Positions 2,339 through 38,382 of a DNA stretch of 39,885 bases are shown one piece after another; the first letter of the stretch is position 1; each line of letters begins with the position of its first letter. Source of the DNA: a virus (lineage: Duplodnaviria > Caudoviricetes); IMG/VR virus record IMGVR_UViG_3300016471_000179, positions 1 to 39,885 of that record; one strand, written 5' to 3'. The notes below the pieces were generated by a model that saw nothing but the letters and a program-made list of their open reading frames with translations, was not told where the DNA came from and made no database searches. The position numbers were made by a program, and so were the translations under genes.

Positions 2339-2641
2339 ATGAGTAATATTAAATTATTTCATTTGACAACTGGTGAAGAAATTGTTGGCGATTTACAAGA
2401 AAGTGTAGATGAAACTTATACCATTAAAAATCCATGTGCAATTGGAATTGTACCAACGCATACAGGACAAGTTACATTGAACATGCAACCATGGTTATTG
2501 TTTTCTGATACAAAGTCTGTTACCATCAAAGATTCACACGTTTTATTTACTACTGGTGTTGACATTAAGATTCTAAACAAGTATAATGAGATATTTGGAT
2601 CAGGAATCGTAATTGCTCAACAATCACCGGTAGTTAGATGA
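2339..2641 (+). CDS. Conserved T4-like hypothetical protein (possible Sm-like fold) upstream of gp43
   Basis: KLFHLTTGEEIVG...IKNP..I...PW...Y..IFGSGIV; ATG 2339 follows GGAG (the track's 2303 start overlaps the terminator). Confidence 0.7.
   Translation: MSNIKLFHLTTGEEIVGDLQESVDETYTIKNPCAIGIVPTHTGQVTLNMQPWLLFSDTKSVTIKDSHVLFTTGVDIKILNKYNEIFGSGIVIAQQSPVVR
2559..2587 (+). promoter_or_regulatory. Sigma70 consensus promoter upstream of DNA polymerase
   Basis: TTGACA (2559-2564), 17 nt, TATAAT (2582-2587), 50 nt before the gp43A start. Confidence 0.75.
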
Positions 2642-4080
2642 AATTTTACACACACTTTACCAGACAAGGAAACTACATCCTAGAACGCGGCTATGAAAAT
2701 GGCAAGCGTTTTTCTAGGAAGGTAGAATACAATCCAACTCTTTTTGTTCCAGCAAAAGAAGAAACTGAATTTCGCACATTGGAAGGTTACTATGTGTCGC
2801 CCGTAGAGATGGGCACGATGCGTGATGCTGGCGAATTTGTTAAACGATATGAAGATGTGCAGAACTTTCCTATCTATGGTTCTACAAACTATCCTTATGT
2901 TTTCATCAACGAACAATATCCAGATGAAGTGCATTATGACAGAGAATTGATTCGCATTGCAAATCTTGATATCGAGGTTGGTTCAGAGAATGGCTTTCCA
3001 GAGCCAGACAAAGCAAGCGAACCAATTACTGCAATCACCATTGAAATGAATGGACACTTTCATGTGCTGGGATGTGGTGATTATAACAATACCAGAACCG
3101 ATGTGACATATATCAAATGTGAAGATGAATCAAAACTCATTCACAAATTTCTAGAACTATGGGAACGATTCAATATCGATATCGTCACTGGTTGGAACAT
3201 TCAATTTTTTGATATCCCGTATATCTACAATCGCATCATGCGTCTGATGGGCGAGAGTGCGGCAAAACGCCTTTCTCCGTATAAACTCATTGGCGAAAGA
3301 ACGACTACAATTCACAACAAACAACAGACCGCATTTGATCTAGTTGGCATATCCATTCTAGATTACTTGGAACTGTACAAGAAATTTACTTACTCGCAAC
3401 AAGAATCATTTCGCCTGGATCACATCGCATACATTGAACTAGGCGAAAAGAAGTTAGGCTATTCTGAATATGAAACCCTGCATCAACTGTATAAACTCGA
3501 CTATCAAAAATTTATTGACTATAACATCAAAGATGTGGAACTTGTCGGCCGCCTCGATGAAAAAATGAAATTCATTGACATGGTACTTGCACTCGCATAT
3601 GATGCAAAGGTAAATCTCACCGATGTGTTTACGCAAGTACGCATGTGGGATACATTGACGCACAATGCATTGTGGAAGAAAAGCATTGTCGTTCCGCAAA
3701 AGAAAAGCACCAGCAAGAATGAAAAGTATGAGGGTGCGTATGTTAAAGAACCTAAACCCGGCAAGTATGATTGGGTGGTTTCGTTCGACTTGAACAGTTT
3801 GTATCCACATTTGATCATGCAATACAATGTTTCACCTGAAACAATTGTCAATGGTAAACATGCTAATGTAACTATTGAAGATTTGCTGAACAGAAAATAT
3901 GAACAGAATAGCGAATATGTTATGGCTGCCAATGGTCACTACTTCCGTAAAGATGTGCAAGGCTTTCTGCCTGAGATGATGCAAAGAATGTATGATGATC
4001 GTGTTCTATATAAAAAGAAGATGATTGAAGCACAGAAAGAACTAGAGAAAGTGAATGCACAGTTAAAGGATTTAAAATGA
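2638..4080 (+). CDS. 43: Family B DNA polymerase, N-terminal part (gp43A: exonuclease, palm motif A, first fingers helix)
   Basis: ExoI DIEV, ExoII TGWNIQFFDIPY, ExoIII YNIKDV, motif A SFDLNSLYPH; ends in the fingers region. Confidence 0.95.
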   Translation: MKFYTHFTRQGNYILERGYENGKRFSRKVEYNPTLFVPAKEETEFRTLEGYYVSPVEMGTMRDAGEFVKRYEDVQNFPIYGSTNYPYVFINEQYPDEVHYDRELIRIANLDIEVGSENGFPEPDKASEPITAITIEMNGHFHVLGCGDYNNTRTDVTYIKCEDESKLIHKFLELWERFNIDIVTGWNIQFFDIPYIYNRIMRLMGESAAKRLSPYKLIGERTTTIHNKQQTAFDLVGISILDYLELYKKFTYSQQESFRLDHIAYIELGEKKLGYSEYETLHQLYKLDYQKFIDYNIKDVELVGRLDEKMKFIDMVLALAYDAKVNLTDVFTQVRMWDTLTHNALWKKSIVVPQKKSTSKNEKYEGAYVKEPKPGKYDWVVSFDLNSLYPHLIMQYNVSPETIVNGKHANVTIEDLLNRKYEQNSEYVMAANGHYFRKDVQGFLPEMMQRMYDDRVLYKKKMIEAQKELEKVNAQLKDLK

Positions 4081-4592
4081 TACAAGAATACGAAGGGGTT
4101 TTACCACCAGAGTTTTGTGAGCATTTGATTCATCGTTTTGATGCCGAAGAGAAAAAAGATCAAAGTCATGATATGTTCATTCAATTAGAGATTGGTCAAT
4201 GGCAAGATGAATGCGAAGGTTTGATTGATGTTGTAAAGCGTATAGGAGAACACTATAGCGCACAATACGATCCGTACAGAATGATGCCACAACGCAGACG
4301 CATAGAAGGCTTTCGCATCAAACGATATGAACCAAACAAGCATAGTTTTCCTTTACATGCTGATGCATCAAGTGCAGAATCATGCACACGGTATCTTGCA
4401 TTCTTATGCTATCTAAACGATAGCGAAGCAGGCACTAAATTTTACATGCCAAAGAATGTGGGCGATTTGACAATTGAAGCGAAACAAGGTAAAATGTTAG
4501 TGTTTCCTCCTATGTGGATGTTTCCGCATGAGGGAATTATGCCAACTGAAAAACGAAAATATATTTTAAGCACATACTTTCATTATGTCTGA
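4077..4592 (+). CDS. 2OG-Fe(II) oxygenase (prolyl-hydroxylase-like)
   Basis: H.D (HAD), YLND...GT.F, G.MLVFPP.W.FPH.G...KY.L pattern. Confidence 0.88.
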   Translation: MIQEYEGVLPPEFCEHLIHRFDAEEKKDQSHDMFIQLEIGQWQDECEGLIDVVKRIGEHYSAQYDPYRMMPQRRRIEGFRIKRYEPNKHSFPLHADASSAESCTRYLAFLCYLNDSEAGTKFYMPKNVGDLTIEAKQGKMLVFPPMWMFPHEGIMPTEKRKYILSTYFHYV

Positions 4593-5676
4593 AAAAACAG
4601 AATTACTTAAACAAAAGAAGCAACTAGAAAATCAAATTTCTAGATACAAGAACCTTCAACTTGCAAAGAAGGTTCAATTGAATTCCGCTTATGGTGCGTT
4701 GGGCAACGAGTACTTTAGATTCTTTGACCTGCGACAAGCAGAGGCAATTACATTTTCTGGTCAACTTTCAATTCGTTGGATTGGTGAACAGTTGAATAGA
4801 TATATGAATAGATTATTGAAAACACAGGATGTTGATTATGTCATTGCGTCAGATACGGATTCTGTATACCTTCATCTTGGTCCGTTGGTTGATATGGTCT
4901 ACGGATCGAAGAATATCAAAGAAGAGAAAATTGTTGATTTCATCGACAAGGCCTGCGCGGAAAAGATTGAACCTTTTATCGACAAGGCGTATGAAGAACT
5001 TGCAAACTACATGAATGCATATGATCAAAAGATGTTTATGAAACGTGAGGTCATTGCAAACACGGGTATTTGGACTGCCAAGAAGAGATACATTCTCAAT
5101 GTGTGGGACTCTGAAGGCGTTCGTTATAATGAACCTAAACTCAAAATGTCTGGCATTGAAGCGGTAAAATCTTCCACACCAGGATCATGTAGAGAGAAAA
5201 TTAAAGAGGCATTAAAGGTTGTTATGAAAGGTACAGAGGCAGAGTTTCATGCATTCAATCAAGCATTCAAAGATGAATTTTCAAAGTTACCATTTGAAGA
5301 TGTAGCATTTCCAAGAGGTGTTTCTGAACTCACTAAATATGAAAGTAAGTCTGATGTCTATCAGAAAGGCACACCGATTCATGTTCGTGGTGCAGTGATA
5401 TATAATAAACTACTTACAGATAGAAAGTTAACCAAAAAATATCAGGCAATCAAAGACGGTGATAAGATTAAGTTTTGCTATATGAAAATGCCTAATCCTA
5501 CACATGAGAATGTGTTATCCGTTTTAAATGTTCTACCAAAAGAATTTAATCTGGAGAAGTATATCGACTACGATACACAATTTGAAAAGGCATATCTAGA
5601 ACCATTGAAAATTATTGTGAACACTTTTGGTTGGAGTGCCGAACCAGTTGCATCACTAAGAGGATTTTTCACATGA
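4585..5676 (+). CDS. 43: Family B DNA polymerase, C-terminal part (gp43B)
   Basis: Motif B KVQLNSAYGALG, motif C SDTDSVY, KKRY, C-terminal clamp-binding-like SLRGFF. Confidence 0.95.
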   Translation: MSEKTELLKQKKQLENQISRYKNLQLAKKVQLNSAYGALGNEYFRFFDLRQAEAITFSGQLSIRWIGEQLNRYMNRLLKTQDVDYVIASDTDSVYLHLGPLVDMVYGSKNIKEEKIVDFIDKACAEKIEPFIDKAYEELANYMNAYDQKMFMKREVIANTGIWTAKKRYILNVWDSEGVRYNEPKLKMSGIEAVKSSTPGSCREKIKEALKVVMKGTEAEFHAFNQAFKDEFSKLPFEDVAFPRGVSELTKYESKSDVYQKGTPIHVRGAVIYNKLLTDRKLTKKYQAIKDGDKIKFCYMKMPNPTHENVLSVLNVLPKEFNLEKYIDYDTQFEKAYLEPLKIIVNTFGWSAEPVASLRGFFT

Positions 5677-6813: not shown

Positions 6814-7875
6814 ATGGGTAGTTTTTTTAATGATTTAGTGGAGCAGTTAAAGGATGAAGACACTAAAATTTTGGCTGACGGTGGCGCTTCTGCTGAATTT
6901 AGCGGTTGCATTGATACTGGCTCATACGCTCTCAACGCTTTGCTTAGTGGAAGTATATACGGCGGAGTGCCAAACAATAAAGTCACCGCCTTTGCAGGTG
7001 AATCGGCAACAGGTAAAACATTCTTTGTGCTTGGAATCGTCAAGCAGTTTTTAGAAGCAAATCCAGAAGGTGGCGTTATCTATTTTGATACTGAAGCCGC
7101 AGTTACAAAATCTATGATGGAACAAAGAGGCGTAGATACTAAACGAGTTGTCATCTCTGAACCTGATACAATTCAAAAGTTTCGCCACACCGCATTACAG
7201 ATCATTGAAAAATATTCTGCACAATCAGAAGCAAAGCGCAAGCCAATGATGATGGTTCTAGATTCTCTTGGGCAGTTGTCTTCCACAAAAGAAATTGAAG
7301 ATACCGCAGAGGGTAAAGAAACCAAAGACATGACGAAGGCTTCTATTCTCAAAGCAACCTTTCGAGTACTCAATCTGAAACTTGCAAAGATTGGTGTGCC
7401 GTTGCTTGTGACTAATCATGTGTACGATGTGGTTGGTGCATACATTCCAACAAAAGAAATGTCTGGTGGTTCTGGTCTTAAGTACACCGCATCAACAATT
7501 GTATTCTTGTCAAAGAAGAAAGATAAAGATGGCACCGAAGTAATTGGTAACATCGTCAAAGGCAAACTTGTCAAATCTCGCCTCACAAAAGAAAACTCTC
7601 AAGTTGAAGTAAAAATTACTTATAGCACGGGTCTTGATCGTTACTATGGTTTGCTTGACATTGCAGAAAAGTATGATATAATCAAGAAAGTATCTACAAG
7701 ATACGAATTGCCTGATGGTTCAAAAGTTTTCGGTAAGGCAATCAACGAAGAACCTGAGAAATATTTTACAAAAGAGGTCCTTGATGCAATCGATGAAGCA
7801 TGTAAAAGAGAATTCTTATATGGACAAGATAGTATTGGATCCTCTACTGAAGAACCTTTGGAGGAAGAAGCATGA
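6814..7875 (+). CDS. uvsX: UvsX RecA-like recombinase
   Basis: Walker [24 protein letters not shown]. Confidence 0.95.
7655..7682 (+). promoter_or_regulatory. Candidate internal sigma70 promoter for gp40/gp41
   Basis: TTGACA, 16 nt, TATAAT with extended TG; lies inside uvsX. Confidence 0.4.
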
Positions 7876-13588: not shown

Positions 13589-16513
13589 ATGAAAAAAGTT
13601 ATAGTTGTTTATGGCGGCGGATTTCAGCCGTTTCATCAAGGTCATATGAGCAGTTATGAGGAAGCCAAACGCGCTTTTCCATCTGCCGACTTTTATGTTG
13701 CATCAAGCAACGATACAAAAGTAAGACCAATTCCTTTTTCAGACAAAAAATTCCTAGCACAACAAGCAGGCGTTAGGGACGATTTCGTTCAGGTAAGACA
13801 ACCTGTAAATCCAGATGAGATTCTACGAAAGTATGATCCCGAAAAAGACATTTTGATTCTTGTGCGAAGTGAACGCGATCCAGTCAAGTACACTAAGAAA
13901 GACGGTTCGCCAGCATATTATCAACCGTTCAAGAATCTAAAGGACTGTAAGCCATTTGATCCTAAGACAGGACATGGTTACATTTTTGTTACAAAGAAGA
14001 AAGATTTTTCTGTTGCTGGACAAGAAGTATTCTCTGGTAGTCAGGTTCGTAAGATGTATTCTGATGCAGATGATGCTAAGAGAGAAGAGATTGTAGATGA
14101 TTTGTATCCAAAAGCAAGTAATCCAGCAAAGGTTAAAAAGTTATTAGATAAGTATATCGGTGGATTAAAAGAGGAGTTAGAAATGGATGAAGCACTCTCA
14201 TTGCAAGGGCGCCGCAAACGCGCAATGCAGGTAAGACGCCTAAGAGCGAAAATGCTGAGAGCAAGAGAACGCGCCATGAAGCGTTTCGCTAGCCAACCTA
14301 CTCTCACCAAGAGAGCAAGAAGACAAGCAGTTACATTTTTAAAACGTAGAATTGGTGGAGGCAAAGCATATCAAACATTGTCACCATCACAGAAAATTTC
14401 AATCGATAAAAAGATTGAAGCAATGAAAGGTGTAATTGGTAAAATTGGTTCTCGTTTATTACCTCAAGTGAAACGTAGAGAGGTACAACGTAGACAAAAT
14501 ATGGCACAAACAGAATCATTGAATTTTAAGTTTACAAATCTTTTTGAAAAACCACAACTTCCGCAAGATACGCATGTTGGAGGTAAAGAAGGAACTCAGC
14601 CATCCAAATATTATAAAGGTCTAGACAAAGAAACAAAAGAAAGACGCGATGCACATTTCAAACGTATGGGTCCAAAGTCAGACTCCGATAAGTCTGCATA
14701 CGCAGATGCGCCAGGCGACAAAGAGGCAAGAGAAAAAGGTATGCCTCAGTCTAAGCACACTCTAAAATTCAAGCAAATGTTTGGAGAAGAAATTGGTAAG
14801 AAAGAATTTTCTCGCTTGGATCAATTGGTTCGCCTTGGTCTTGCCGACAAGACATTGCTATCTACAATTAAGAAAGCAATGCAGAAAATTGAATCGGGTG
14901 ATGCTCTATCAAACAATGAGAGACAGGCAACGCAAAATCTCTTGTCTACCTTGCTTGACATGGTAACAAGCCAAGATCAATTATTCAATCTTGCAAAATC
15001 ATCATTGAGAAAAGAACAATACGAAGAACTTCGCGAAGCAACGTATGTTGGTAATATAGGTATTATAGAACTTGCTAAATTTTATAAAGTAGCAAGTAAA
15101 GAACATATTGAAATGTTTCAAAAACTTCTTGTGACGAAAGATTACAAAAGAGCATGGGCACTTGTTCAAGGTGCAACTGGAATGAAATTACTCGGCAAAG
15201 AATTCAATGAATCTGCGGTTCAGATTTTAGAAAAGGGTGAGTATGATGATTATGAAGAATTCGACGGTCTTGAAATGGCTCAAATTGAAGTTGCAAATCT
15301 AATACAAGATGCAGAATATTTACTTGATATTCTTTCAGAAATGGATGAAGAACCAGAAGCATGGGTTCTTTCTAAGATTACAAAAGCAGTTGACTATATC
15401 GAATCTGTAACAGACTATCTTGAATTTGAAGATGATTATGATTACAATGATGACGAAGAAGATTTTGATTCAGACTATGAAAATGAATCAGAATTTGAAT
15501 TTAGTGATACAGATGTTTATGAAGCATTATCCGATATGTCTAAAGAAGAAATGGGCGAAGAACTTCATGAAATCTATCACGTTCTACATGAAGAAATCGA
15601 AGGTCTGAAAAAGAAAGCAGAGAAGTCTGGCATTGCGTATAGCATTCTAAAGAAAGTTTATGACAGAGGTATGGCCGCATGGCAAGGTGGGCATCGTCCA
15701 GGCACAACACCACAGCAATGGGCATTTGCGCGAGTGAACTCATTCATTACGAAAGGTAAAGGAACTTGGGGCGGTGCAGATAGTGATCTAGCCGCAAAAG
15801 CAAAAGGAAGTAGCAAAAACGAAGCATTTGCACAGTTTGCCGAAACACTAGAATGGGGTACCGATGAGTTGCGTAAGAAATATGCAAGCGATACACCAGG
15901 ACAAACACCTGAAATTCAAGTTGCCAGCCATAGCACTTTAAACAATTTGTTTAAGCAAAACGTAGAAAAAATTAAGAGAGCGCATGATGTGCATGAAGCC
16001 ATTGATTGGCACCTTGACAACAAAGTACCTCTCACAGAAAATGTATATCGCGTTGGTTCTGAAATGTATTTCAAACTGTATCGCGAAGCAAGAAAACTCT
16101 ATAACGAAGGCAAGTTGGAACTTGAAGGTTTAGACAGGTCTTTAATTGAAGAAACCGAAATAGGTAAGTTTGCATTCACTGAAGAAGGGCAGCCTGTACC
16201 ACTTGATTGCCCAATGATTATGGAAGAAGAGGATGAAGATAAAGATCCGCCATTGAACAAACCAAAGCGTGGTGGATCTAAAAAGTTTTATGTATATGTA
16301 AGAAAACCTGATGGTGGTATCAAGAAAGTCACATGGGGCGACACAACAGGTCTATCAGTTAAGTTAGACGATCCAGAAGCAAGAAAATCTTTTGCAGCCC
16401 GTCATCAATGCGATATGCAAAAAGACAAAACAACTGCGGCATATTGGGCGTGCAATACACCAAGATATGCAAAACAATTGGGACTTTCCGGTGGCGGAAA
16501 CTTTTTTTGGTAG
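13589..16513 (+). CDS. 974-aa mosaic protein: N-terminal HxGH (cytidylyltransferase-like) nucleotidyltransferase domain plus multiple small modules
   Basis: VVYGGGFQPFHQGH and SGSQVRK; later modules include an Arg-rich helix, RGMAAWQGGHRPGTTPQQWAFARVNSF and KKFYVYV...ARKSFAARHQC...YWAC. Confidence 0.75.
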   Translation: MKKVIVVYGGGFQPFHQGHMSSYEEAKRAFPSADFYVASSNDTKVRPIPFSDKKFLAQQAGVRDDFVQVRQPVNPDEILRKYDPEKDILILVRSERDPVKYTKKDGSPAYYQPFKNLKDCKPFDPKTGHGYIFVTKKKDFSVAGQEVFSGSQVRKMYSDADDAKREEIVDDLYPKASNPAKVKKLLDKYIGGLKEELEMDEALSLQGRRKRAMQVRRLRAKMLRARERAMKRFASQPTLTKRARRQAVTFLKRRIGGGKAYQTLSPSQKISIDKKIEAMKGVIGKIGSRLLPQVKRREVQRRQNMAQTESLNFKFTNLFEKPQLPQDTHVGGKEGTQPSKYYKGLDKETKERRDAHFKRMGPKSDSDKSAYADAPGDKEAREKGMPQSKHTLKFKQMFGEEIGKKEFSRLDQLVRLGLADKTLLSTIKKAMQKIESGDALSNNERQATQNLLSTLLDMVTSQDQLFNLAKSSLRKEQYEELREATYVGNIGIIELAKFYKVASKEHIEMFQKLLVTKDYKRAWALVQGATGMKLLGKEFNESAVQILEKGEYDDYEEFDGLEMAQIEVANLIQDAEYLLDILSEMDEEPEAWVLSKITKAVDYIESVTDYLEFEDDYDYNDDEEDFDSDYENESEFEFSDTDVYEALSDMSKEEMGEELHEIYHVLHEEIEGLKKKAEKSGIAYSILKKVYDRGMAAWQGGHRPGTTPQQWAFARVNSFITKGKGTWGGADSDLAAKAKGSSKNEAFAQFAETLEWGTDELRKKYASDTPGQTPEIQVASHSTLNNLFKQNVEKIKRAHDVHEAIDWHLDNKVPLTENVYRVGSEMYFKLYREARKLYNEGKLELEGLDRSLIEETEIGKFAFTEEGQPVPLDCPMIMEEEDEDKDPPLNKPKRGGSKKFYVYVRKPDGGIKKVTWGDTTGLSVKLDDPEARKSFAARHQCDMQKDKTTAAYWACNTPRYAKQLGLSGGGNFFW

Positions 16514-16519
16514 AGAAAT

Positions 16520-16786
16520 ATGAATCCATATAATGAAATTTGGTTTGACGGAGTAAAAAAGAGAACATTTTTTGAATCGGTTGACGATAACGAACTTGTT
16601 TGGCATCGTGATCGTAGAGATCGCTATGTTAAAGTTGTAGAATCTAAAGATTGGAAGTTACAGATGGACAATGAACTTCCGATAGATTTAGAAGAAGGTA
16701 AGATGTACACAATCAAGGCTATGCAGTATCACAGAATTTTAAAAGGTAACGGAAACTTAGTTTTAGAAATTAGAGAGGAACTATAA
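16520..16786 (+). CDS. Small cupin-like protein
   Basis: WHRD..DR...W.LQMDNELP...YHRILKG. Confidence 0.6.
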   Translation: MNPYNEIWFDGVKKRTFFESVDDNELVWHRDRRDRYVKVVESKDWKLQMDNELPIDLEEGKMYTIKAMQYHRILKGNGNLVLEIREEL

Positions 16787-19700
16787 TGGATAAAATGTCA
16801 AGCAAATTTGGTTTGCCAGAATCATTACTTGATGCGGTCAAGAAGATTCAAACTGAAGAAACTGAATATCAGATGAAAGTAAAAGCCTTGATGAAAAAGA
16901 AAGGCATTACTTCATTAGGTCAGTTATCGCCTGATGAAAAGAAAGCATTCTTCAGTCAATTAGATTCTATGCATCAAGCAAAAAATGAAGAATTCGGTTT
17001 GTCTGAAGGTATGCTTTCTAAGTTTAAAAAGGCAGACGCCCAAACAAAAACTGATTTCAATAAGTATAATATGAAACCTTATGATGCAGTTTATACTGTG
17101 ACAATGGGCGATAAGGGCGAACCAAAATATGATTTGACAATTCTCAAACATGAGAATGGTAAGTTTTTAGCGGCACACGGATCAGTTGTTGTGAAACAAG
17201 AATTCTCTAAAGCAGAAGATGCGGCTAAATGGTTGATGAATTGGTACGAAGAAAATAAACGACCAGCAGCAAAGAATGAAAGCGTAGAGGAGTCCACTGG
17301 GGTAACAGATTACAATCCAAAAAGTCAGGGCGGCACACGAAAAGAATTAATTGCAAAGTATCACAAGACTAAGAATCCTAAAGATGCTGAGGCTGCTAGA
17401 AAGGCTGGTGCGACACAAAAAGAACTTCAGAGTGAAGAAGTTGAAATTGATGAAATGGATAAATCTCAACCTTCATCTAGTCGTGGCGCTGAAGGACTTC
17501 CAACTGGAAAGAAGGCAACTCCAATTACAGTCGATAAAGTTAAAAATGATGCATTAAAGGCGTTGCAACGAAAATACAAAACTGAAGATATGAAATCTGT
17601 TGCAAGTGAGATTGAAACTTACGCAATGAAACATGGCGGTATTGACAAAGCAGATATGATGAAAGTTGCAAATCTCTTGAAAATGGGTAAAATGAGTGAC
17701 GCAAAGAAAAAAGTTATGTCAATGGATACTGATCCTAGAGATTTTTTACTTGATAAAATGAAAAAACTTAAGATTGATGAAGCATCAAGTCAATATAAAA
17801 TTAAAAGTGTAGGAAAAGATGCAAAAGGTGACTATCACATTGATCCAAAAACTGGTGACAAAGTTTATGGCAAGGCATCTGTAGGCGACCATAAAAATCC
17901 TAATACAGGAAAAATTACATCTAGCAAACCTAAACCAAGTTTTATGGAAGAAAATGAACTTGAGGAGTCTGGTGATATGGGACCTGTAAACAGAGGTAAA
18001 GAAAAAACTGTAATGATGCGTCATAAGACTTCAGGTAAAGAAATTGTTGTTGTTCCATCTGGAGTTAAAGAAAAAGAAAAACTTGGTTTTGTCGTAGTCA
18101 AAGAAGAAAAACATCCAGAAGATGTAAAAACTTCTGCAAATAAAATGGAGCCTGAAGGCACAAAAAAGTGGTTGGCCACTCACGCAACGCATCTTAAATA
18201 TTTGAAACAAGTCAAGAAAGACAAACTTCAAGAGGCGGAGGGTGGCGGCACTTCAATTTCAAACATTAAATCGGACGCACAAGGTGCGCTTAAAAGGGCA
18301 GAACTTTTAAAGAAATCGGCAGAACTGCGTCTGCAACATGCACAAGAACGTCAATCACTTTCAAAACAAAAAAAATCATTAAGCAAGGAGCAGGTTGAAT
18401 TTATTGATGAAGAATTTTCTGATGCTCAATTAGCAAAGTTACGCGCAGAATATGGTAAACTTAACACCATTGATCCATCCAGCGATAATTATAAAAAATT
18501 GACTGCTATGCTTGATAAAATGGATAAGCAAGCACTTACAAAGATTGCCGGCGCAAATATCAAATTCATGTCTGGACTTGCAAGAAATCGCGTCAATCGC
18601 ATGAAGAACGAAGAAGTGGAAGAACTAGATGAAACTCCAAAGGTTGATCAAGGACTTTCTGGTAAACAAAAAGTTATGGCAAGAGCCTTAAGAAGAGATG
18701 ATTCTCCCATTATAAATGTAGGAAATACTACAGGTGGACAATGGAGAGGTAAAACTTCTCCTTCACCATATAAAGATAGTAATGTTGCTAAATCTGGCGA
18801 ACGCAAAGGTATGATTACTAAGTCAGCGATCCAAAGAACTAAAGATGCAATTAAATCCAGATTAAATAAGTTGAAGAAAGAAGAAGTTGAAATTGAAGAG
18901 GGTAAGTCTAGCACAGGCTATGAACTCTATCACAAAGATTTTTCTTCGGCAATGGCACATGCATATGACTTTGCAAAGAAAAAATATAACATTGAAATTG
19001 ATCCATTTGAGATTGATCGCAAAGTTGCAATGGGTCCTAAGAAGCCATCTTCAGGCAAATCAAATGCATATCGCTTGTTAGATAAGACTGGTAAAAAGGG
19101 TGTGCAGATTCAAGTCGCAAATCTTGATGATAAGAGATATGAACTCAACATGTATAAAGAAGAGATTGAAATGAATGAGGTCAAAGTTGGCGATAAAGTC
19201 ACTTTTGATCATGAAATGACCGCGGCTCCAGGCAGAACAACAAAGAAATCTGGAATCATTCACAAGATTGAAGGTGATGTTGCACATGTAAAAGTAAAAG
19301 ATAAGTATGGCGTAATTGTGCATAAGAAAAAAATGAGCGAACTTCAAAATGAAGAGATTGACCTTGAAGAAAAAGTTGTCAAAGGCAAAGGCTACGACAA
19401 TCCAGAGAATGAGCGTAAAGGTCCGGAAGGAAAAATACCGATGACAAGTCTCATGCCTGGTCATAGTGATAAGGCAGCACGATTCGCCGCAGTGCAAGCA
19501 AAAGGTACATTAGTCAAAGGTAAAGCACAAAGCGCACCACAAAAGGCGCCTCAAAAAGAGGCGGCCGATGCACCTGAATTTAAACAAGGTGGCGACAAAT
19601 TAGCAAAGAAGTTTGAAAAGGCTTTCGCTAAGATGGGGTTAAAAACTAATATCAAAATGAAAACAGTTGACAATGTTTCTATTAACGAAAAAGAAGAAGG

Positions 19701-19809
19701 AAAAAAAGATAAAGAGGCGTCAGCAAAGCAAAAGGCAGTTAAGAAAGGCGAAACACTAAGCGGTAAGCAAGAACCTATTAAGATTGATCCAGAGATTAGC
19801 GACAAATAA
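16786..19809 (+). CDS. 1007-aa Lys/Glu-rich mosaic protein, putative internal head polyprotein
   Basis: Modules separated by recurrent EE(V/I)(E/D)(I/L/M)xE linkers; located in the late region. Confidence 0.6.
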   Translation: MDKMSSKFGLPESLLDAVKKIQTEETEYQMKVKALMKKKGITSLGQLSPDEKKAFFSQLDSMHQAKNEEFGLSEGMLSKFKKADAQTKTDFNKYNMKPYDAVYTVTMGDKGEPKYDLTILKHENGKFLAAHGSVVVKQEFSKAEDAAKWLMNWYEENKRPAAKNESVEESTGVTDYNPKSQGGTRKELIAKYHKTKNPKDAEAARKAGATQKELQSEEVEIDEMDKSQPSSSRGAEGLPTGKKATPITVDKVKNDALKALQRKYKTEDMKSVASEIETYAMKHGGIDKADMMKVANLLKMGKMSDAKKKVMSMDTDPRDFLLDKMKKLKIDEASSQYKIKSVGKDAKGDYHIDPKTGDKVYGKASVGDHKNPNTGKITSSKPKPSFMEENELEESGDMGPVNRGKEKTVMMRHKTSGKEIVVVPSGVKEKEKLGFVVVKEEKHPEDVKTSANKMEPEGTKKWLATHATHLKYLKQVKKDKLQEAEGGGTSISNIKSDAQGALKRAELLKKSAELRLQHAQERQSLSKQKKSLSKEQVEFIDEEFSDAQLAKLRAEYGKLNTIDPSSDNYKKLTAMLDKMDKQALTKIAGANIKFMSGLARNRVNRMKNEEVEELDETPKVDQGLSGKQKVMARALRRDDSPIINVGNTTGGQWRGKTSPSPYKDSNVAKSGERKGMITKSAIQRTKDAIKSRLNKLKKEEVEIEEGKSSTGYELYHKDFSSAMAHAYDFAKKKYNIEIDPFEIDRKVAMGPKKPSSGKSNAYRLLDKTGKKGVQIQVANLDDKRYELNMYKEEIEMNEVKVGDKVTFDHEMTAAPGRTTKKSGIIHKIEGDVAHVKVKDKYGVIVHKKKMSELQNEEIDLEEKVVKGKGYDNPENERKGPEGKIPMTSLMPGHSDKAARFAAVQAKGTLVKGKAQSAPQKAPQKEAADAPEFKQGGDKLAKKFEKAFAKMGLKTNIKMKTVDNVSINEKEEGKKDKEASAKQKAVKKGETLSGKQEPIKIDPEISDK

Positions 19810-33517: not shown

Positions 33518-34345
33518 ATGTATCATTTGAAATTCAATTTTTATCACATAGGCGATCAAATCGCAACCACTGCTATGCCAGAAAACATTCACAACGTAAC
33601 TGGTGAGAAATGTATCATTTCAGATAAAAGAATTTGGGCGCTCAAACATAATCCTTATGTTGTCTTCATGGATGAAGAAGAAGCAAACAAGCATCCCATG
33701 ATCAGTTTGATTCCAGACTGTAGAATACAAGAACAAGTAAAGCAATACGCAGATATAATGAAATGTCCAATCTCAAATGGACAGACCGAATACATGTGCA
33801 TTCAATTAGGTTTCAATAATGTTCATCTAAGACATTCCCGCCTTTACATTTATGAAGACGAAAAGATTGTACCAAATCGAATCGTTGTTCACACCACAGG
33901 TTCAGATAGAACACGCGATGGTGAAATCGCAATTCGGACCACATCAGGAGAAGATGATGTTCGTATCATGTCCGATGATGTTATCAATTCTATTTTAAAG
34001 AACTACGAAGATTATGAGATTATTCAGATTGGTGGTGATAACGATAAGCCTCTTGGTGGCAATAGCACAAACCTCTGTGGCAAATTAGACTATTGGGAAG
34101 TCGCAAAACTCATCGCAGGTTCGGCAAAATTCATAGGCGTAAACTCAGGGCCAATGCACATTGCAAATTGTTATCCTAGAGTAGAAAAGAGAATCGTTCT
34201 ACAAGAGTTTCCAATTGATACGTTGATGACATACAAAGCAGGTGACATACGCAATTGGCTATTCTCTTGGATTGATCCAACATGCACTTTCTTTAATAAA
34301 TTTGACCACGATGTAGGCTATACCTACTCACATAAAAAACTATGA
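33518..34345 (+). CDS. GT9-like (heptosyltransferase-type) glycosyltransferase
   Basis: IGDQI N-terminus, IIQIGG, FIGVNSGPMHIA. Confidence 0.65.
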   Translation: MYHLKFNFYHIGDQIATTAMPENIHNVTGEKCIISDKRIWALKHNPYVVFMDEEEANKHPMISLIPDCRIQEQVKQYADIMKCPISNGQTEYMCIQLGFNNVHLRHSRLYIYEDEKIVPNRIVVHTTGSDRTRDGEIAIRTTSGEDDVRIMSDDVINSILKNYEDYEIIQIGGDNDKPLGGNSTNLCGKLDYWEVAKLIAGSAKFIGVNSGPMHIANCYPRVEKRIVLQEFPIDTLMTYKAGDIRNWLFSWIDPTCTFFNKFDHDVGYTYSHKKL

Positions 34346-35094
34346 AAAAAATTACAGTTGTCGTTGTAGGCAATACGCATCAAAAGGGTATGCGTTTTGC
34401 AATTGATAGAACATTAGAAAATACACCTGATGTCGAAAGTGTTTTACAGGTTGGCAATATACCTCTTGGATATGGTCATCATGTTTACATTCGAGACAAT
34501 TTCAATGTTGATGATTACAGTTACTTCATGATCAAGAATCTATGGGCACACATTAAAACAGAATTTGTGCTTGTCGTTCAATATGATGGTATGGCGGCGA
34601 ACAAGTTAGCATGGTCAGACGATTATTATAATTATGATTACATTGGTGCACCATGGCCTGATCGATTCACATGGATTGGCGCAGATGAGAAAGTTGGCAA
34701 CGGCGGATTTAGTCTTCGTAGTGCTAGATTGTTAGAAGCATTGCGTGATCCGTTCATCAAACTTGATACTAATAGCAATAGACTACGAAATGAAGATGCG
34801 GTAATTTGCCAAGGGCATTCTTCGTTTCTAAGAAAAAAATATGACATTAAATTTGCCACCATAGAAGTGGCAAACAAATTCAGTCATGAGTGGTGCAATC
34901 CTACAGGGGAAACATTTGGTTTTCATGGTGCATGGAACTTTCCGTTGTTTTTTGACGAAGATATTTGCCTGAAATATCTACTTGACATTCCAAAAGAACA
35001 CTGGTATAATGATAAACTACAGATGCTAGAAATGATCTGTAGGAAAAAAGATTATGGCAAACTATGGAATGCAATTATGCATAAGGTAAAATGA
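34342..35094 (+). CDS. Putative glycosyltransferase-like protein (DUF5672-like, from memory)
   Basis: QYDG, YDYIGAPW, VGNGGFSLRS, ED, FGFH. Confidence 0.7.
   Translation: MKKITVVVVGNTHQKGMRFAIDRTLENTPDVESVLQVGNIPLGYGHHVYIRDNFNVDDYSYFMIKNLWAHIKTEFVLVVQYDGMAANKLAWSDDYYNYDYIGAPWPDRFTWIGADEKVGNGGFSLRSARLLEALRDPFIKLDTNSNRLRNEDAVICQGHSSFLRKKYDIKFATIEVANKFSHEWCNPTGETFGFHGAWNFPLFFDEDICLKYLLDIPKEHWYNDKLQMLEMICRKKDYGKLWNAIMHKVK
34982..35010 (+). promoter_or_regulatory. Sigma70 consensus promoter
   Basis: TTGACA, 17 nt, TATAAT with extended TG, upstream of 35091 and the small-ORF array. Confidence 0.7.
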
Positions 35095-35378
35095 TTGACG
35101 TACTACGACCTACGGCGGAATGGATTAGAGATGATTGGAATTCAAATAAGTTTCGTTTCTTAGCAGAATTACTTGCATGGGCAATTTCAATTGGATGTGC
35201 AATTACTATGGCACTTACTGTACCAAATCCGCCTCTTCTTGCTTTGTATCCTGCATGGATAACTGGATGTGCTATATATGCTTGGGCTGCATGGACTCGG
35301 AAATCTTTTGGCATGTTGGCTAACTATCTCTTGTTGACAACCATTGATAGTGTTGGGTTGGTAAGGATGTTAATGTGA
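35091..35378 (+). CDS. Small three-TM membrane protein
   Basis: Hydrophobic 95 aa, R.SFGMLANY. Confidence 0.7.
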   Translation: MIDVLRPTAEWIRDDWNSNKFRFLAELLAWAISIGCAITMALTVPNPPLLALYPAWITGCAIYAWAAWTRKSFGMLANYLLLTTIDSVGLVRMLM

Positions 35379-35614
35379 AAGAAAGTATCATCAAAGCCGG
35401 ACTCGATTCTGGCATGTTAAATTATGTTGATAATGAGACACCGAGGCAGTACTTCATTTCGCATTGGGCAGACGAAGAATGCTTGGAACAATTCGCAGAC
35501 TTGCTTATCCAAGAATGTTGTGCTATAATTAAAGAGTGGAAAAAGGAACCTTTTCCATTCGATGAAGACTTGGCAGTGTCTCTTCTTAGAGAACATTTCG
35601 GAGTGGAAGAATGA
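35375..35614 (+). CDS. Divergent array paralogue 1
   Basis: EQFADLLIQECC...EHFGVEE. Confidence 0.75.
   Translation: MKESIIKAGLDSGMLNYVDNETPRQYFISHWADEECLEQFADLLIQECCAIIKEWKKEPFPFDEDLAVSLLREHFGVEE
35501..35529 (+). promoter_or_regulatory. Candidate promoter at the head of the array
   Basis: TTGCTT, 17 nt, TATAAT with extended TG. Confidence 0.5.
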
Positions 35615-35799
35615 ACGAACGAATTAGAGAACTTGCTAGACATGCAGGATTCGAATTGAACCCTGCACACTTTGATCATGAAAAGTTCGCCGAGTTGATT
35701 GTAGAAGAATGTGCTAATGTCGCCGATGAGAATTACATTCATCGCGGAAGTAGAACTTGTGGGCTAGCGATTAGACTACATTTCGGAGTTGAAGAATGA
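35611..35799 (+). CDS. Array paralogue 2
   Basis: MNERIRELA...EKFAELIVEEC...HFGVEE. Confidence 0.85.
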   Translation: MNERIRELARHAGFELNPAHFDHEKFAELIVEECANVADENYIHRGSRTCGLAIRLHFGVEE

Positions 35800-35960
35800 G
35801 TAAATTCAGTGAATTACTTGAAGAATATCTAGACGAGCGTGATCGCCAAAATAGCGATTACTATGATAACCGATATATTGGTTCCAAAATTCAAGGCAGA
35901 GAATTGATGCAGGAACTAGCGAAAGCAATGGATAAATTGATTCATGGAGTTGAAGAATGA
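35796..35960 (+). CDS. Unrelated 54-aa ORF in array (not in track)
   Basis: MSKFSELLEEYLDERD...KLIHGVEE; ATGA overlaps at both ends. Confidence 0.75.
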   Translation: MSKFSELLEEYLDERDRQNSDYYDNRYIGSKIQGRELMQELAKAMDKLIHGVEE

Positions 35961-36301
35961 ACGAACGAATTAGAGAACTTGCTGAACAGGCTGGATTGAA
36001 AGTAAATGCAGATGGCGAAATTGGACCTGCTTTCTTTGGTTCCATTGATGCTGGATACAAAAAGTTCGCCGAGTTGATTGTTCAGGAATGTGCTGATGTT
36101 GGTTCTAAATTTAGTCAAGCACACCCAGAAGATATTCGTTATCAGATCAAAAGACATTTCGGAGTTGAAGAACCTAAAGGTTATCAACCTACAGGTTGGG
36201 TGTGCCCAAAATGTGGCACTGATAGAACCAAGGCCGCTTGTCCTCGTGGCCGTGGAGCAGCAACAGATGGTAGTTGCCCTATGTTTGGAGTAGCACAATG
36301 A
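35957..36301 (+). CDS. Array paralogue 3 with C-terminal Cys-rich (CxxC) extension
   Basis: HFGVEE continues in frame into GWVCPKCG...C...C. Confidence 0.85.
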   Translation: MNERIRELAEQAGLKVNADGEIGPAFFGSIDAGYKKFAELIVQECADVGSKFSQAHPEDIRYQIKRHFGVEEPKGYQPTGWVCPKCGTDRTKAACPRGRGAATDGSCPMFGVAQ

Positions 36302-36510
36302 ATACAATTAGATTATGTAAAAGAGAAGTAGAGCGAATTCGAGAACTGTTTGACACCATACATCAAACCGGTAATGTTGGGTTTGTCACTCTTACTCGAG
36401 ACGCAGAGGACTCTGGTATTGGCTATGAACTTAGAGCCACCTTTCAGATTACTCACAAAGACACAGATGGTGATTTTGTTGTAACTATCACTGACCATAG
36501 AGATTGGTAA
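36298..36510 (+). CDS. Hypothetical protein, paralogue of 38815-39039
   Basis: SGIG...G.F...ITD.R.W; ATGA overlap at 36298. Confidence 0.7.
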   Translation: MNTIRLCKREVERIRELFDTIHQTGNVGFVTLTRDAEDSGIGYELRATFQITHKDTDGDFVVTITDHRDW

Positions 36511-36511
36511 T

Positions 36512-36730
36512 ATGAACGAACGAATTCGACTACTTGCTGAACAGGCTGGATTGAAAGTAAATGCAGATGGCGAAATTGGACCTGCTTTCTTTGGTTCCAT
36601 TGATGCTGGATACAAAAAGTTCGCCGAGTTGATTGTTCGGGAATGCTTGTTAAAAATTGAGAATGAGCGGTTTGAACTTCCTGATTTTATTATTGATAGC
36701 GTCAAACAACATTTTGGAGTTGAAGAATGA
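36512..36730 (+). CDS. Array paralogue 4
   Basis: MNERIRLLA...KKFAELIVREC...HFGVEE. Confidence 0.85.
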   Translation: MNERIRLLAEQAGLKVNADGEIGPAFFGSIDAGYKKFAELIVRECLLKIENERFELPDFIIDSVKQHFGVEE

Positions 36731-36894
36731 AACAGTATAATGTCTGGTATGGTGCGGTACCTTTTCAAAACAAAACTTTTAGGTCTTGGAAAGAGGCAGT
36801 GGCTTTTATGAAAGAACAATTGGATGCTGGTGTGATTGTGCGATCAGTAACAAAAGAGGAAGTGGAAGAAGAATATTTTGGATTTGAAGAATGA
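36727..36894 (+). CDS. Unrelated 55-aa ORF in array (not in track)
   Basis: MKQYNVWYG...EEYFGFEE; ATGA overlaps at both ends. Confidence 0.7.
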   Translation: MKQYNVWYGAVPFQNKTFRSWKEAVAFMKEQLDAGVIVRSVTKEEVEEEYFGFEE

Positions 36895-37160
36895 ATGAAC
36901 GAATTAAAGAACTTGCCGAACAAGCATGGCGTGCTGCCTCTGACGAAGTAGCACATCTCATCCGTGTTCATAATAGGTCATATTCACAGGATGAGATCAC
37001 AGATATTTTTGAAATTAAATTCGCCGAGTTGATTGTTAGGGAATGTGTCGAAGTATGTGGTTCTGTTGCGGCAGTTAGAGCAGGATATCACGATGCAGAT
37101 GGTAGAGATACAGCAGATTCTTGTGGTGATCAGATTAAAGAACATTTCGGAGTTGAATGA
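36891..37160 (+). CDS. Array paralogue 5
   Basis: MNERIKELA...KFAELIVREC...HFGVE. Confidence 0.85.
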   Translation: MNERIKELAEQAWRAASDEVAHLIRVHNRSYSQDEITDIFEIKFAELIVRECVEVCGSVAAVRAGYHDADGRDTADSCGDQIKEHFGVE

Positions 37161-37372
37161 TGAACGAACGAATTCGACTACTTGCTGAACAGGCTAAAGC
37201 AGAATCTAACCAATGGCTTGGTAGTAAACCTGCAATTACAATAACATACGATGAGTTGGAAAAGTTCGCCCTGTTGATTGTCCGGGAATGTGCTAATAGA
37301 ATAGATTATTGGGAATCAAGACAGGGCGAACATTCTGATGATTTACTAAAACATTTCGGAGTTGAAGAATGA
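37157..37372 (+). CDS. Array paralogue 6
   Basis: MNERIRLLA...EKFALLIVREC...HFGVEE. Confidence 0.85.
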   Translation: MMNERIRLLAEQAKAESNQWLGSKPAITITYDELEKFALLIVRECANRIDYWESRQGEHSDDLLKHFGVEE

Positions 37373-37491
37373 CCGAAGGTGACCGAGCAGGTTGGTGGGC
37401 CGTTGTATATCTACTTATGGTAGGTGTGGCCGCTTATTTCACTATGTTTATGGTCATTTTCAGTTTTATTAAACAAATGTTTTGGAGTTAA
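37369..37491 (+). CDS. 40-aa single-TM peptide in array (not in track)
   Basis: MTEGDRAGWWAVVYLLMVGVAAYFTMFMVIFSFIKQMFWS. Confidence 0.7.
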   Translation: MTEGDRAGWWAVVYLLMVGVAAYFTMFMVIFSFIKQMFWS

Positions 37492-37494
37492 AGA

Positions 37495-37704
37495 ATGAAC
37501 GAACGAATTAAAGAACTATTATGTCAAGCATATGATCAAGCGGTGCCAGAAACTTGGACTACACTTTCTTCTGAACAATTAGAAAGAGTGTATGAAAAGT
37601 TCGCCGAGTTGATTGTGCGTGAGTGTATCGCCAATTGTGATGACTTGAATAGCATGAAGTATATTGCTGATCACTTTGGCATCAAGATAGAGGGTTTGGA
37701 ATGA
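37495..37704 (+). CDS. Array paralogue 7
   Basis: MNERIKELL...EKFAELIVREC...HFGI. Confidence 0.85.
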   Translation: MNERIKELLCQAYDQAVPETWTTLSSEQLERVYEKFAELIVRECIANCDDLNSMKYIADHFGIKIEGLE

Positions 37705-37955
37705 ACGAACGAATTCGAGAGTTGATGATGCAGAGTTGGAATACCTATTACAATGAAGAAGTAAATGGTACACGGTTTCCAGTTGTGCAAAAATTTGATG
37801 CAGAAAAGTTCGCCGAGTTGATTGTTCGTCAATGCGGTTACTATGCTGATATTTTTGAAGCGGTAGGTTGTCCAGATGACATGGATCCAACAGAAACCAA
37901 ACCCAGTGATTATATTAAGAGACATTTTGGAGTTGAGGAATGGCAACTTTTATAA
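37701..37955 (+). CDS. Array paralogue 8
   Basis: MNERIRELM...EKFAELIVRQC...HFGVEE. Confidence 0.85.
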   Translation: MNERIRELMMQSWNTYYNEEVNGTRFPVVQKFDAEKFAELIVRQCGYYADIFEAVGCPDDMDPTETKPSDYIKRHFGVEEWQLL

Positions 37956-38173
37956 AGGCCTTGGTAGAAAATCCATATTATTTGAGGGACTGTGATCTTG
38001 GTCAATATGGTGATTATAAGTCTGCTAGATATTTCAACACACATAATCAGGAACAATATCTTCCTTTAGATGTTATCCTAGACGATGGTATCTACTACCC
38101 ATATTTTAATAGAGAGCAAATGACCCCTATTTGGCGTGGAATGAAAATAAAACATTTCGGAGTTGAAGAATGA
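37940..38173 (+). CDS. Unrelated 77-aa ORF ending in the array's C-terminal box
   Basis: MATFIKALVENP...KHFGVEE. Confidence 0.75.
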   Translation: MATFIKALVENPYYLRDCDLGQYGDYKSARYFNTHNQEQYLPLDVILDDGIYYPYFNREQMTPIWRGMKIKHFGVEE

Positions 38174-38382
38174 ACGAACGAATTAGAGAACTTATGATAC
38201 AATCCAATCCCGATGGTGATTTTTCGGAAGTTGAATGGGTGCTTGAAAAGTTCGCCGAGTTGATTGTTCGGGAATGTGCCAATCAATGTGACTTATTGTT
38301 GGATCATAAAATAAGTTCAGAATGGTCAAGAGGAACACACGATTGTTCCAGAGCGATTAAACAACATTTTGGAGTTGAATGA
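38170..38382 (+). CDS. Array paralogue 9
   Basis: MNERIRELM...EKFAELIVREC...HFGVE. Confidence 0.85.
   Translation: MNERIRELMIQSNPDGDFSEVEWVLEKFAELIVRECANQCDLLLDHKISSEWSRGTHDCSRAIKQHFGVE

Follow-up and report, generated by a model that had tools for sequence, protein, structure and literature searches.

The 39.9 kb linear virus record IMGVR_UViG_3300016471_000179, analysed here in its entirety (the window; estimated to be 24% complete), encodes an array of 14 open reading frames (ORFs) at positions 35375-38382, comprising nine paralogues of one mini-gene family and five unrelated ORFs, hereafter passengers. Each family gene contains three conserved blocks (A, B and C) separated by two variable halves, V1 between A and B and V2 between B and C. 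Comparisons between loci show that shared segments start and stop at these blocks, and that V1 and V2 are almost unlinked. We propose that gene halves, whole genes and passengers reassort at A, B and C across lake phages, probably via general homology-directed recombination and not via a site-specific integrase.

Blocks A, B and C of the mini-gene family

Family proteins are ~72 amino acids (aa) long and take the form MNERI.. (V1) KFAELIV.EC (V2) HFGVEE, with blocks of 24-36 nt that are coding and contain neither promoter nor terminator. Blocks A (8 copies in the window, at the gene start) and B (9 copies, mid-gene) are conserved as DNA equally with C. Both were missed by the original prediction, which described C as a box marking the ends of unrelated ORFs; only the five passengers are unrelated ORFs, and the other 9/14 belong to the family. 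Approximately 14 copies of this box had been claimed. A position-weight scan recovered 11 clear ones (starts 35591, 35776, 36152, 36707, 36871, 37140, 37349, 37475, 37920, 38150 and 38362), with scores of 21.7-41.2 compared with a best score of 7.5 in 70 kb of control sequence, and the exact C-box 21-mer has 4 copies in the window, all within the array. Three of the listed copies fell below the threshold: 35943, in which the last 15 nt at the 3′ side are unchanged, the weak copy 36284, and 37672, which lacks GGAG. As proposed, C carries a GGAG Shine-Dalgarno (SD) sequence and a stop/start overlap, but genes read through the boxes at 36155 and 37923 and form no overlap there. One read-through gives family gene 3 an extension of ~40 aa (36152-36301) that contains a CxxC motif, closes with a weak second C-like box and is identical in the relative L308.

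Fixation at silent sites shows the blocks to be DNA-level features. Block codons are fixed and often rare, for instance CGA at 124/135 in MNERI and GGA at 93/94 in HFGVEE across 79 loci found via protein patterns. This pattern was retained after redundancy filtering to one unit per V1 and V2 cluster, which left 156/201 units with V1 and V2 unshared. Block B codons AAG (124/136), TTC (125/156), GCC (141/156), GAG (128/139) and TTG (144/156) were used in 80-92% of cases, compared with 0.17-0.32 for identical codons inside the V segments, and the block C codon GGA was found at 150/155 compared with 0.24. The same blocks are present in phages with RecA only 33-36% identical to that of the window, and two genomes with 65% identical RecA have array segments in common at 95-98%. 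The boxes lie on one strand in all but 1/482 loci.

The family is virus-restricted and unnamed. Its profile matches 10,362 clusters at 50% identity (E ≤ 0.001), and its nearest Atlas clusters are all viral. A search of 185,579 species genomes returned 16 matches, all on contigs of metagenome-assembled genomes (MAGs) from mixed phyla, 15 of them ≤20 kb, which are probably mis-binned phage pieces. The mini-gene proteins have no PHROG family, no Pfam match above cut-off and no match among 50,697 INPHARED phage records, and we found no description of them in the literature searched, whose coverage excluded subscription journals and supplements. The predicted model has three helices (mean pLDDT 87), with no PDB sequence match and no Foldseek match at E ≤ 0.001, an absence that does not establish a new fold. 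The best VIA structural match (Z = 4.9) is not informative, and matches in the viral structure library are uncharacterised or unnamed phage proteins. The family has an invariant Cys and a near-invariant His, which may bind metal. Near-complete carriers (≥90% complete; n = 4, all at ≥98%; 322-374 kb) encode 8, 12, 14 and 18 family copies in several clusters per genome, and six less complete carriers encode 1-13. A-B spacers are in frame in 357/358 cases and B-C spacers in 362/370, the in-frame spacers being without internal stops. Synonymous to non-synonymous differences in shared halves are 619:149 (V1) and 751:224 (V2), counted over pairs that are not independent. The retained reading frame and the predominance of silent differences in the V halves show that the family genes are under purifying selection at the protein level. 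The upstream promoter (see below), gene size, this selection and the diversity of the family suggest that the variable halves are likely to act on host or defence targets.

Reassortment of halves, genes and passengers

Across 483 distinct units (482 loci), 224 pairs share V1 and 210 share V2, and only 5 share both; at ≥95% identity, co-sharing amounted to 5/77 and 3/53. This reassortment was already apparent in a smaller set of 237 units. Neighbouring genes also change, the next gene being common to 5/85 V2-sharing pairs and the previous gene to 9/118 V1-sharing pairs. The original prediction had proposed a comparison of close relatives for breakpoints, and 75/82 ends of window-matching segments do lie at a block (null 0.44). 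An all-versus-all comparison gave 338/401 ends at blocks (null 0.415), with 25 outside and 38 with a block on one side only. The relative L308 carries pieces of the window at 96-100% identity in a different order and joined mostly at blocks. Exchange between blocks is like-with-like, A, B and C differing in sequence.

An automatic classifier assigned 833 distinct C junctions to family-to-family (233), family-to-passenger (407), passenger-to-family (60) and passenger-to-passenger (55) classes, with 78 lacking an ORF on one side; some of these passengers are probably degenerate family genes. The reported endings IHGVEE, YFGFEE and KHFGVEE and the off-frame box reading in 37369-37491 were confirmed in the window. 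Among 118 passenger-ending boxes, 32 are off-frame, including 14 strong ones. The same passenger ends in ..KVFGVEE in L223 and in ..KETFRS in L397, and six homologues of the passenger at 37940 have five different endings (HFGVEE twice, HLEIEE, YFGVE, QIGVE and ILEVE). Because passenger homologues end with a box, without one or with one in another frame, the box is not a protein motif, and a protein-level explanation of the shared C-terminus fails. These endings and the block-bound ends of homology support the earlier view of the box as a portable boundary at which neighbours change.

The C box also occurs beside other genes. In L217 (397-1504), a cluster of nine tRNA genes whose last member is tRNA-Trp (1386-1459) has a strong C box no more than ~20 nt downstream, followed by a homologue of the passenger at 37940. 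In L194 (~7300-7460), a C box immediately follows the stop of an ORF whose end appears to resemble methionine aminopeptidase. L162 (1246-1740) has a Pfam match to Tad3, a Thoeris inhibitor, ~1 kb downstream of a family gene, and this neighbour cluster is present in three loci.

Table 1 Coordinates and strand of the array ORFs and associated features in the window.
Feature	Position	Strand	Remarks
Family gene 1	35375-35614	+	Divergent A; B 35486, C 35591
Family gene 2	35611-35799	+	A 35611, B 35680, C 35776; second half paired with 6 different first-half types
Passenger	35796-35960	+	Ends in partial C box; moved to another place in relative L308
Family gene 3	35957-36301	+	C (36152) read through into Cys-rich extension
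Passenger	36298-36510	+	Homologues in arrays of L061, L138, L191, L306
Family gene 4	36512-36730	+	First 134 nt (A to B) 97% identical to gene 3; divergence begins in block B
Passenger	36727-36894	+	Ends YFGFEE; homologues end in weak box (L219) or no box (L301)
Family gene 5	36891-37160	+	
Family gene 6	37157-37372	+	A at 37160
Passenger, hydrophobic	37369-37491	+	C box read off-frame; the L060 homologue has a perfect off-frame box at its end, the L078 homologue a degenerate one
Family gene 7	37495-37704	+	Degenerate C; first half paired with 7 second-half types
Family gene 8	37701-37955	+	C (37920) read through
Passenger	37940-38173	+	Ends KHFGVEE; L216 copy starts A-like
Family gene 9	38170-38382	+	Second half paired with 6 first-half types
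B-to-B segment	36059-36636	+	100% identical in L308 between different flanks
RecA/UvsX-type recombinase	6814-7875	+	Candidate catalyst
Sigma-70-type promoter	34982-35010	+	12/12 match with extended -10, upstream of array

Mechanism and alternative explanations

Tyrosine recombinases (PF00589) were absent from the window's own contig (0/1; 24% complete), in agreement with the original prediction, as well as from carriers that are 45-81% complete (0/5) and from five carriers including four at ≥98% (0/5). Serine recombinases/resolvases (PF00239) and the Y1/HUH (PF01797) and IS110 (PF02371) transposase profiles were absent from 4/4 near-complete carriers, reverse transcriptases (RT; PF00078) were absent from five carriers, four of them near-complete, and RecA/UvsX was found in 4/4 near-complete carriers. 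Of 393 neighbour clusters, the 150 most frequent include no site-specific recombinase or RT. Integron attC sites consist of a core and an inverse core that form a single-strand hairpin. The GTTRRRY core is present in 80/483 C blocks and the inverse core in 1/483, and DNA folding of the blocks is about equal to that of shuffled sequences, with no attC-like hairpin.

The position of exchange was analysed for block B in the main set, and for C and A in the smaller set only. In 43 pairs with identical V1, identity is 0.93 at codon -2 of B and falls to background by codons 5-6; among 14 pairs with identical V2, codon 6 of B is common to 8, and agreement drops to 0.21-0.29 with V2 divergence (random 0.15). 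The polymorphic B codons 5-6 show no linkage to V1 and, for the most part, none to V2, and exact identity ends within 26 nt in 70/72 V1-sharing pairs and within 9 nt in 38/50 V2-sharing pairs. The gradual decay of linkage to V1 and V2 from both sides inside B argues against a fixed crossover site. Hypermutation of codons 5-6 in place of recombination was also considered; among the few unrecombined pairs, 3/5 keep these codons and 2/5 differ by one base. Non-consensus B was found in 4/5 unrecombined pairs, but these all come from three related contigs.

The integron-like mechanism put forward in the original prediction is not upheld, given the lack of an integrase in the contig and in the near-complete carriers, of an attC hairpin or inverse core, and of a single crossover position. 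The box forms the 3′ terminus of the family genes, and mid-gene block B, which has no SD role, undergoes shuffling of the same kind. The original interpretation is thus partly supported.

Instead, we favour homology-linker shuffling inside genes as the likely explanation. Catalysis would be by the phage RecA/UvsX-type recombinase, with exchange taking place during co-infection and between copies in one genome. A crossover in C/A would hand the incoming gene a ribosome site, because C carries GGAG and the stop/start overlap, and a crossover in B would give an in-frame chimera. Repeated crossovers or short conversion patches may be spread across the block, which would fit the decay of linkage, and frequent exchange may keep silent sites uniform. 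Passengers could first be joined illegitimately beside C or A and from then on move together with that block. The proteins are predicted to be small three-helix scaffolds made early in infection. Recombination of T4 at microhomologies of 6-10 bp is described in part of PMC9391042.

Several points weigh against homology-linker shuffling. Random B blocks are identical over a short stretch (median 14 nt) for an exchange rate this high, so a helper factor may be involved. The searches covered five recombinase/RT families, and a host enzyme, such as IntI in trans, may contribute. The all-versus-all test required a block in every match, inflating its count, and 7/82 window-matching and 25/401 all-versus-all ends lie away from blocks. 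Unit pairs are not independent, owing to shared lineages. Recombination is deduced from sequence comparison, and the proposed protein function from gene position and selection. Contigs of 8/20 listed runs contained no excision circles or clean deletion joints, a search of contigs only; the deletion joints listed have 20-39 nt on the short side, could derive from other phages and were not counted as evidence.

More speculatively, the blocks could be selected recombination signals of a diversity-generating system common to unrelated large lake phages, serving an antibody-like V1 × V2 library (>10,000 clusters at 50% identity) of small scaffolds that are exchanged against host defences or for host takeover, with C as a plug for foreign genes and possibly an unrecognised helper. 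We regard this extension as possible but doubtful.

It is unlikely that the blocks instead serve as sites for a site-specific recombinase or nickase, whether host-encoded or dedicated and unrecognised, in a true cassette system as originally proposed. Such an enzyme would be consistent with rare codons fixed across very distant phages, with the TTCG..GAGTTGA core common to B and C, and with reassortment that outpaces ~5% point divergence. However, the near-complete carriers and commonest neighbour clusters contain no known recombinase family, and three different block sequences exchange like-with-like without a single crossover point.

Slightly less likely still, the blocks may be RNA-level signals, such as a translational operator (for example for RegA), a nuclease site or an A:B hairpin, with shuffling as a by-product. 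C/A does form the SD and start region, a RegA-type regulator is encoded on the contig, and A and B form an imperfect inverted repeat, whose mean duplex energy is -9.5 kcal/mol compared with -6.9 after synonymous recoding. However, true A:B partners (-9.46) hardly differ from shuffled ones (-9.35 ± 0.08), pair retention equals independence at 6/6 positions, and fold z-scores range from +0.58 to -2.53, with 1/8 below -2. The blocks have no Rfam match, and B lies mid-gene. We therefore rejected an A:B hairpin of either attC-like or regulatory type, the complementarity being present and covariation absent. RNA signals can nevertheless coexist with homology-linker shuffling.

Assembler mis-joins at repeats as the main source of reassortment are very improbable. 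Every sequence is a metagenome assembly and contigs do break at blocks, but exact identity across B extends to ≥31 nt in 1.2% of 19,921 pairs of unrelated units and to ≥55 nt in 0%, recombinant pairs differ within the block, other runs (X3, X4, X5) yield contigs of 948-1006 nt that span several blocks in window order, and identical combinations turn up in separate contigs (L306/L248; L308/L274). Equally remote is a selfish mini-element spreading between phages with an incidental protein, which would suit a virus-restricted, multi-copy unit in several clusters per genome but not the purifying selection on frame-keeping V halves, the single-strand orientation of the boxes (all but 1/482 loci), or the lack of terminal inverted repeats and a transposase.

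Phage setting and comparison with known systems

The contig encodes a clamp-loader subunit, a RegA-type regulator, a family B polymerase, RecA/UvsX, a DnaB-like helicase, ThyX, NrdAB and a RuvC-like resolvase, a gene set that identifies the source as a T4-like phage, and metagenome runs containing at least half of the stretch are freshwater (7 rows, 2 studies; two of these may be the source), so by its sequence the window derives from a T4-like lake phage. The perfect match to a sigma-70-type promoter upstream suggests that the array ORFs form an early operon. Inside the array, the single + strand promoter match is 9/12, and total promoter matches are below the shuffle mean. RNA run X17 gave only block-sized matches (≤45 nt) among the pieces listed and is uninformative for expression of the window phage.

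Other features of the contig include the position of this promoter within the 3′ end of a DUF5672 ORF (34342-35094), and a family B DNA polymerase split into two ORFs (2638-4080 and 4585-5676) with a 2OG-Fe(II) oxygenase ORF (4077-4592) between and overlapping both. A purine-skewed region (13589-19809) holds two ORFs of great length (974 and 1007 aa), for the most part without annotation, the first with cytidylyltransferase-like and DUF5824 matches. Carrier phages also encode TctC and DctP solute-binding proteins (L183 9448-10344 and 10422-11447; L212 10487-11368), which possibly hint at betaproteobacterial hosts.

The closest parallel is provided by the promoter-early stem-loop (PeSL) cassettes of T4-type phages, in which, according to the relevant parts of Arbiol 2010 (PMC2839356) and Comeau 2014 (PMC4122927), small genes are gained, lost and replaced at repeated linkers, no integrase was identified and the authors liken the system to integrons. 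The array, too, shows genes being gained, lost and replaced within limits set by the repeat, in a variable region of a T4-like phage. However, PeSLs are described in part of PMC2839356 as ~100-bp intergenic promoter and hairpin elements with demonstrated mini-circles, whereas the array linkers are 24-36 nt, coding and without promoter or stem-loop terminator, block B lies mid-gene and produces chimeric proteins, and no circles were seen in contigs.

Constant motifs separating interchangeable variable segments within one protein are also found in the gp38 adhesin of T2/T6-type phages, where glycine-rich motifs lie between hypervariable segments (section on gp38 in PMC3157838). However, gp38 as portrayed there is a single virion gene with an established function, and its segments often move as a group, whereas the mini-genes occur in 8-18 copies per near-complete genome, their halves are almost unlinked and foreign genes use the same blocks. 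Integron cassettes, as defined in part of PMC8618304, resemble the array as tandem, mostly uncharacterised small ORFs that lie behind one promoter and are rearranged at repeated boundaries, but the array has no IntI-type tyrosine recombinase, folded attC or fixed crossover, and its boundaries lie within coding sequence. The start-associated sequences (SAS) of cluster K mycobacteriophages, proposed as translation-initiation signals, are similarly conserved SD-bearing repeats just upstream of unrelated genes; unlike block C, they do not form the 3′ terminus of a set of paralogous genes, and the pertinent passages of PMC3203893 make no claim of shuffling. Unlike diversity-generating retroelements, array carriers lack an RT, and diversity in the array arises via segment exchange.

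What is new is linker-mediated modular shuffling acting inside genes. The array provides a large natural test, below the gene level, of the linker model of modular phage evolution, in which short coding blocks delimit the near-free mixing of protein halves and bring foreign genes along together with a ribosome site. Should the variable halves bind proteins of the host or of defence systems, the array would constitute a diversity generator that needs neither an integrase nor an RT.

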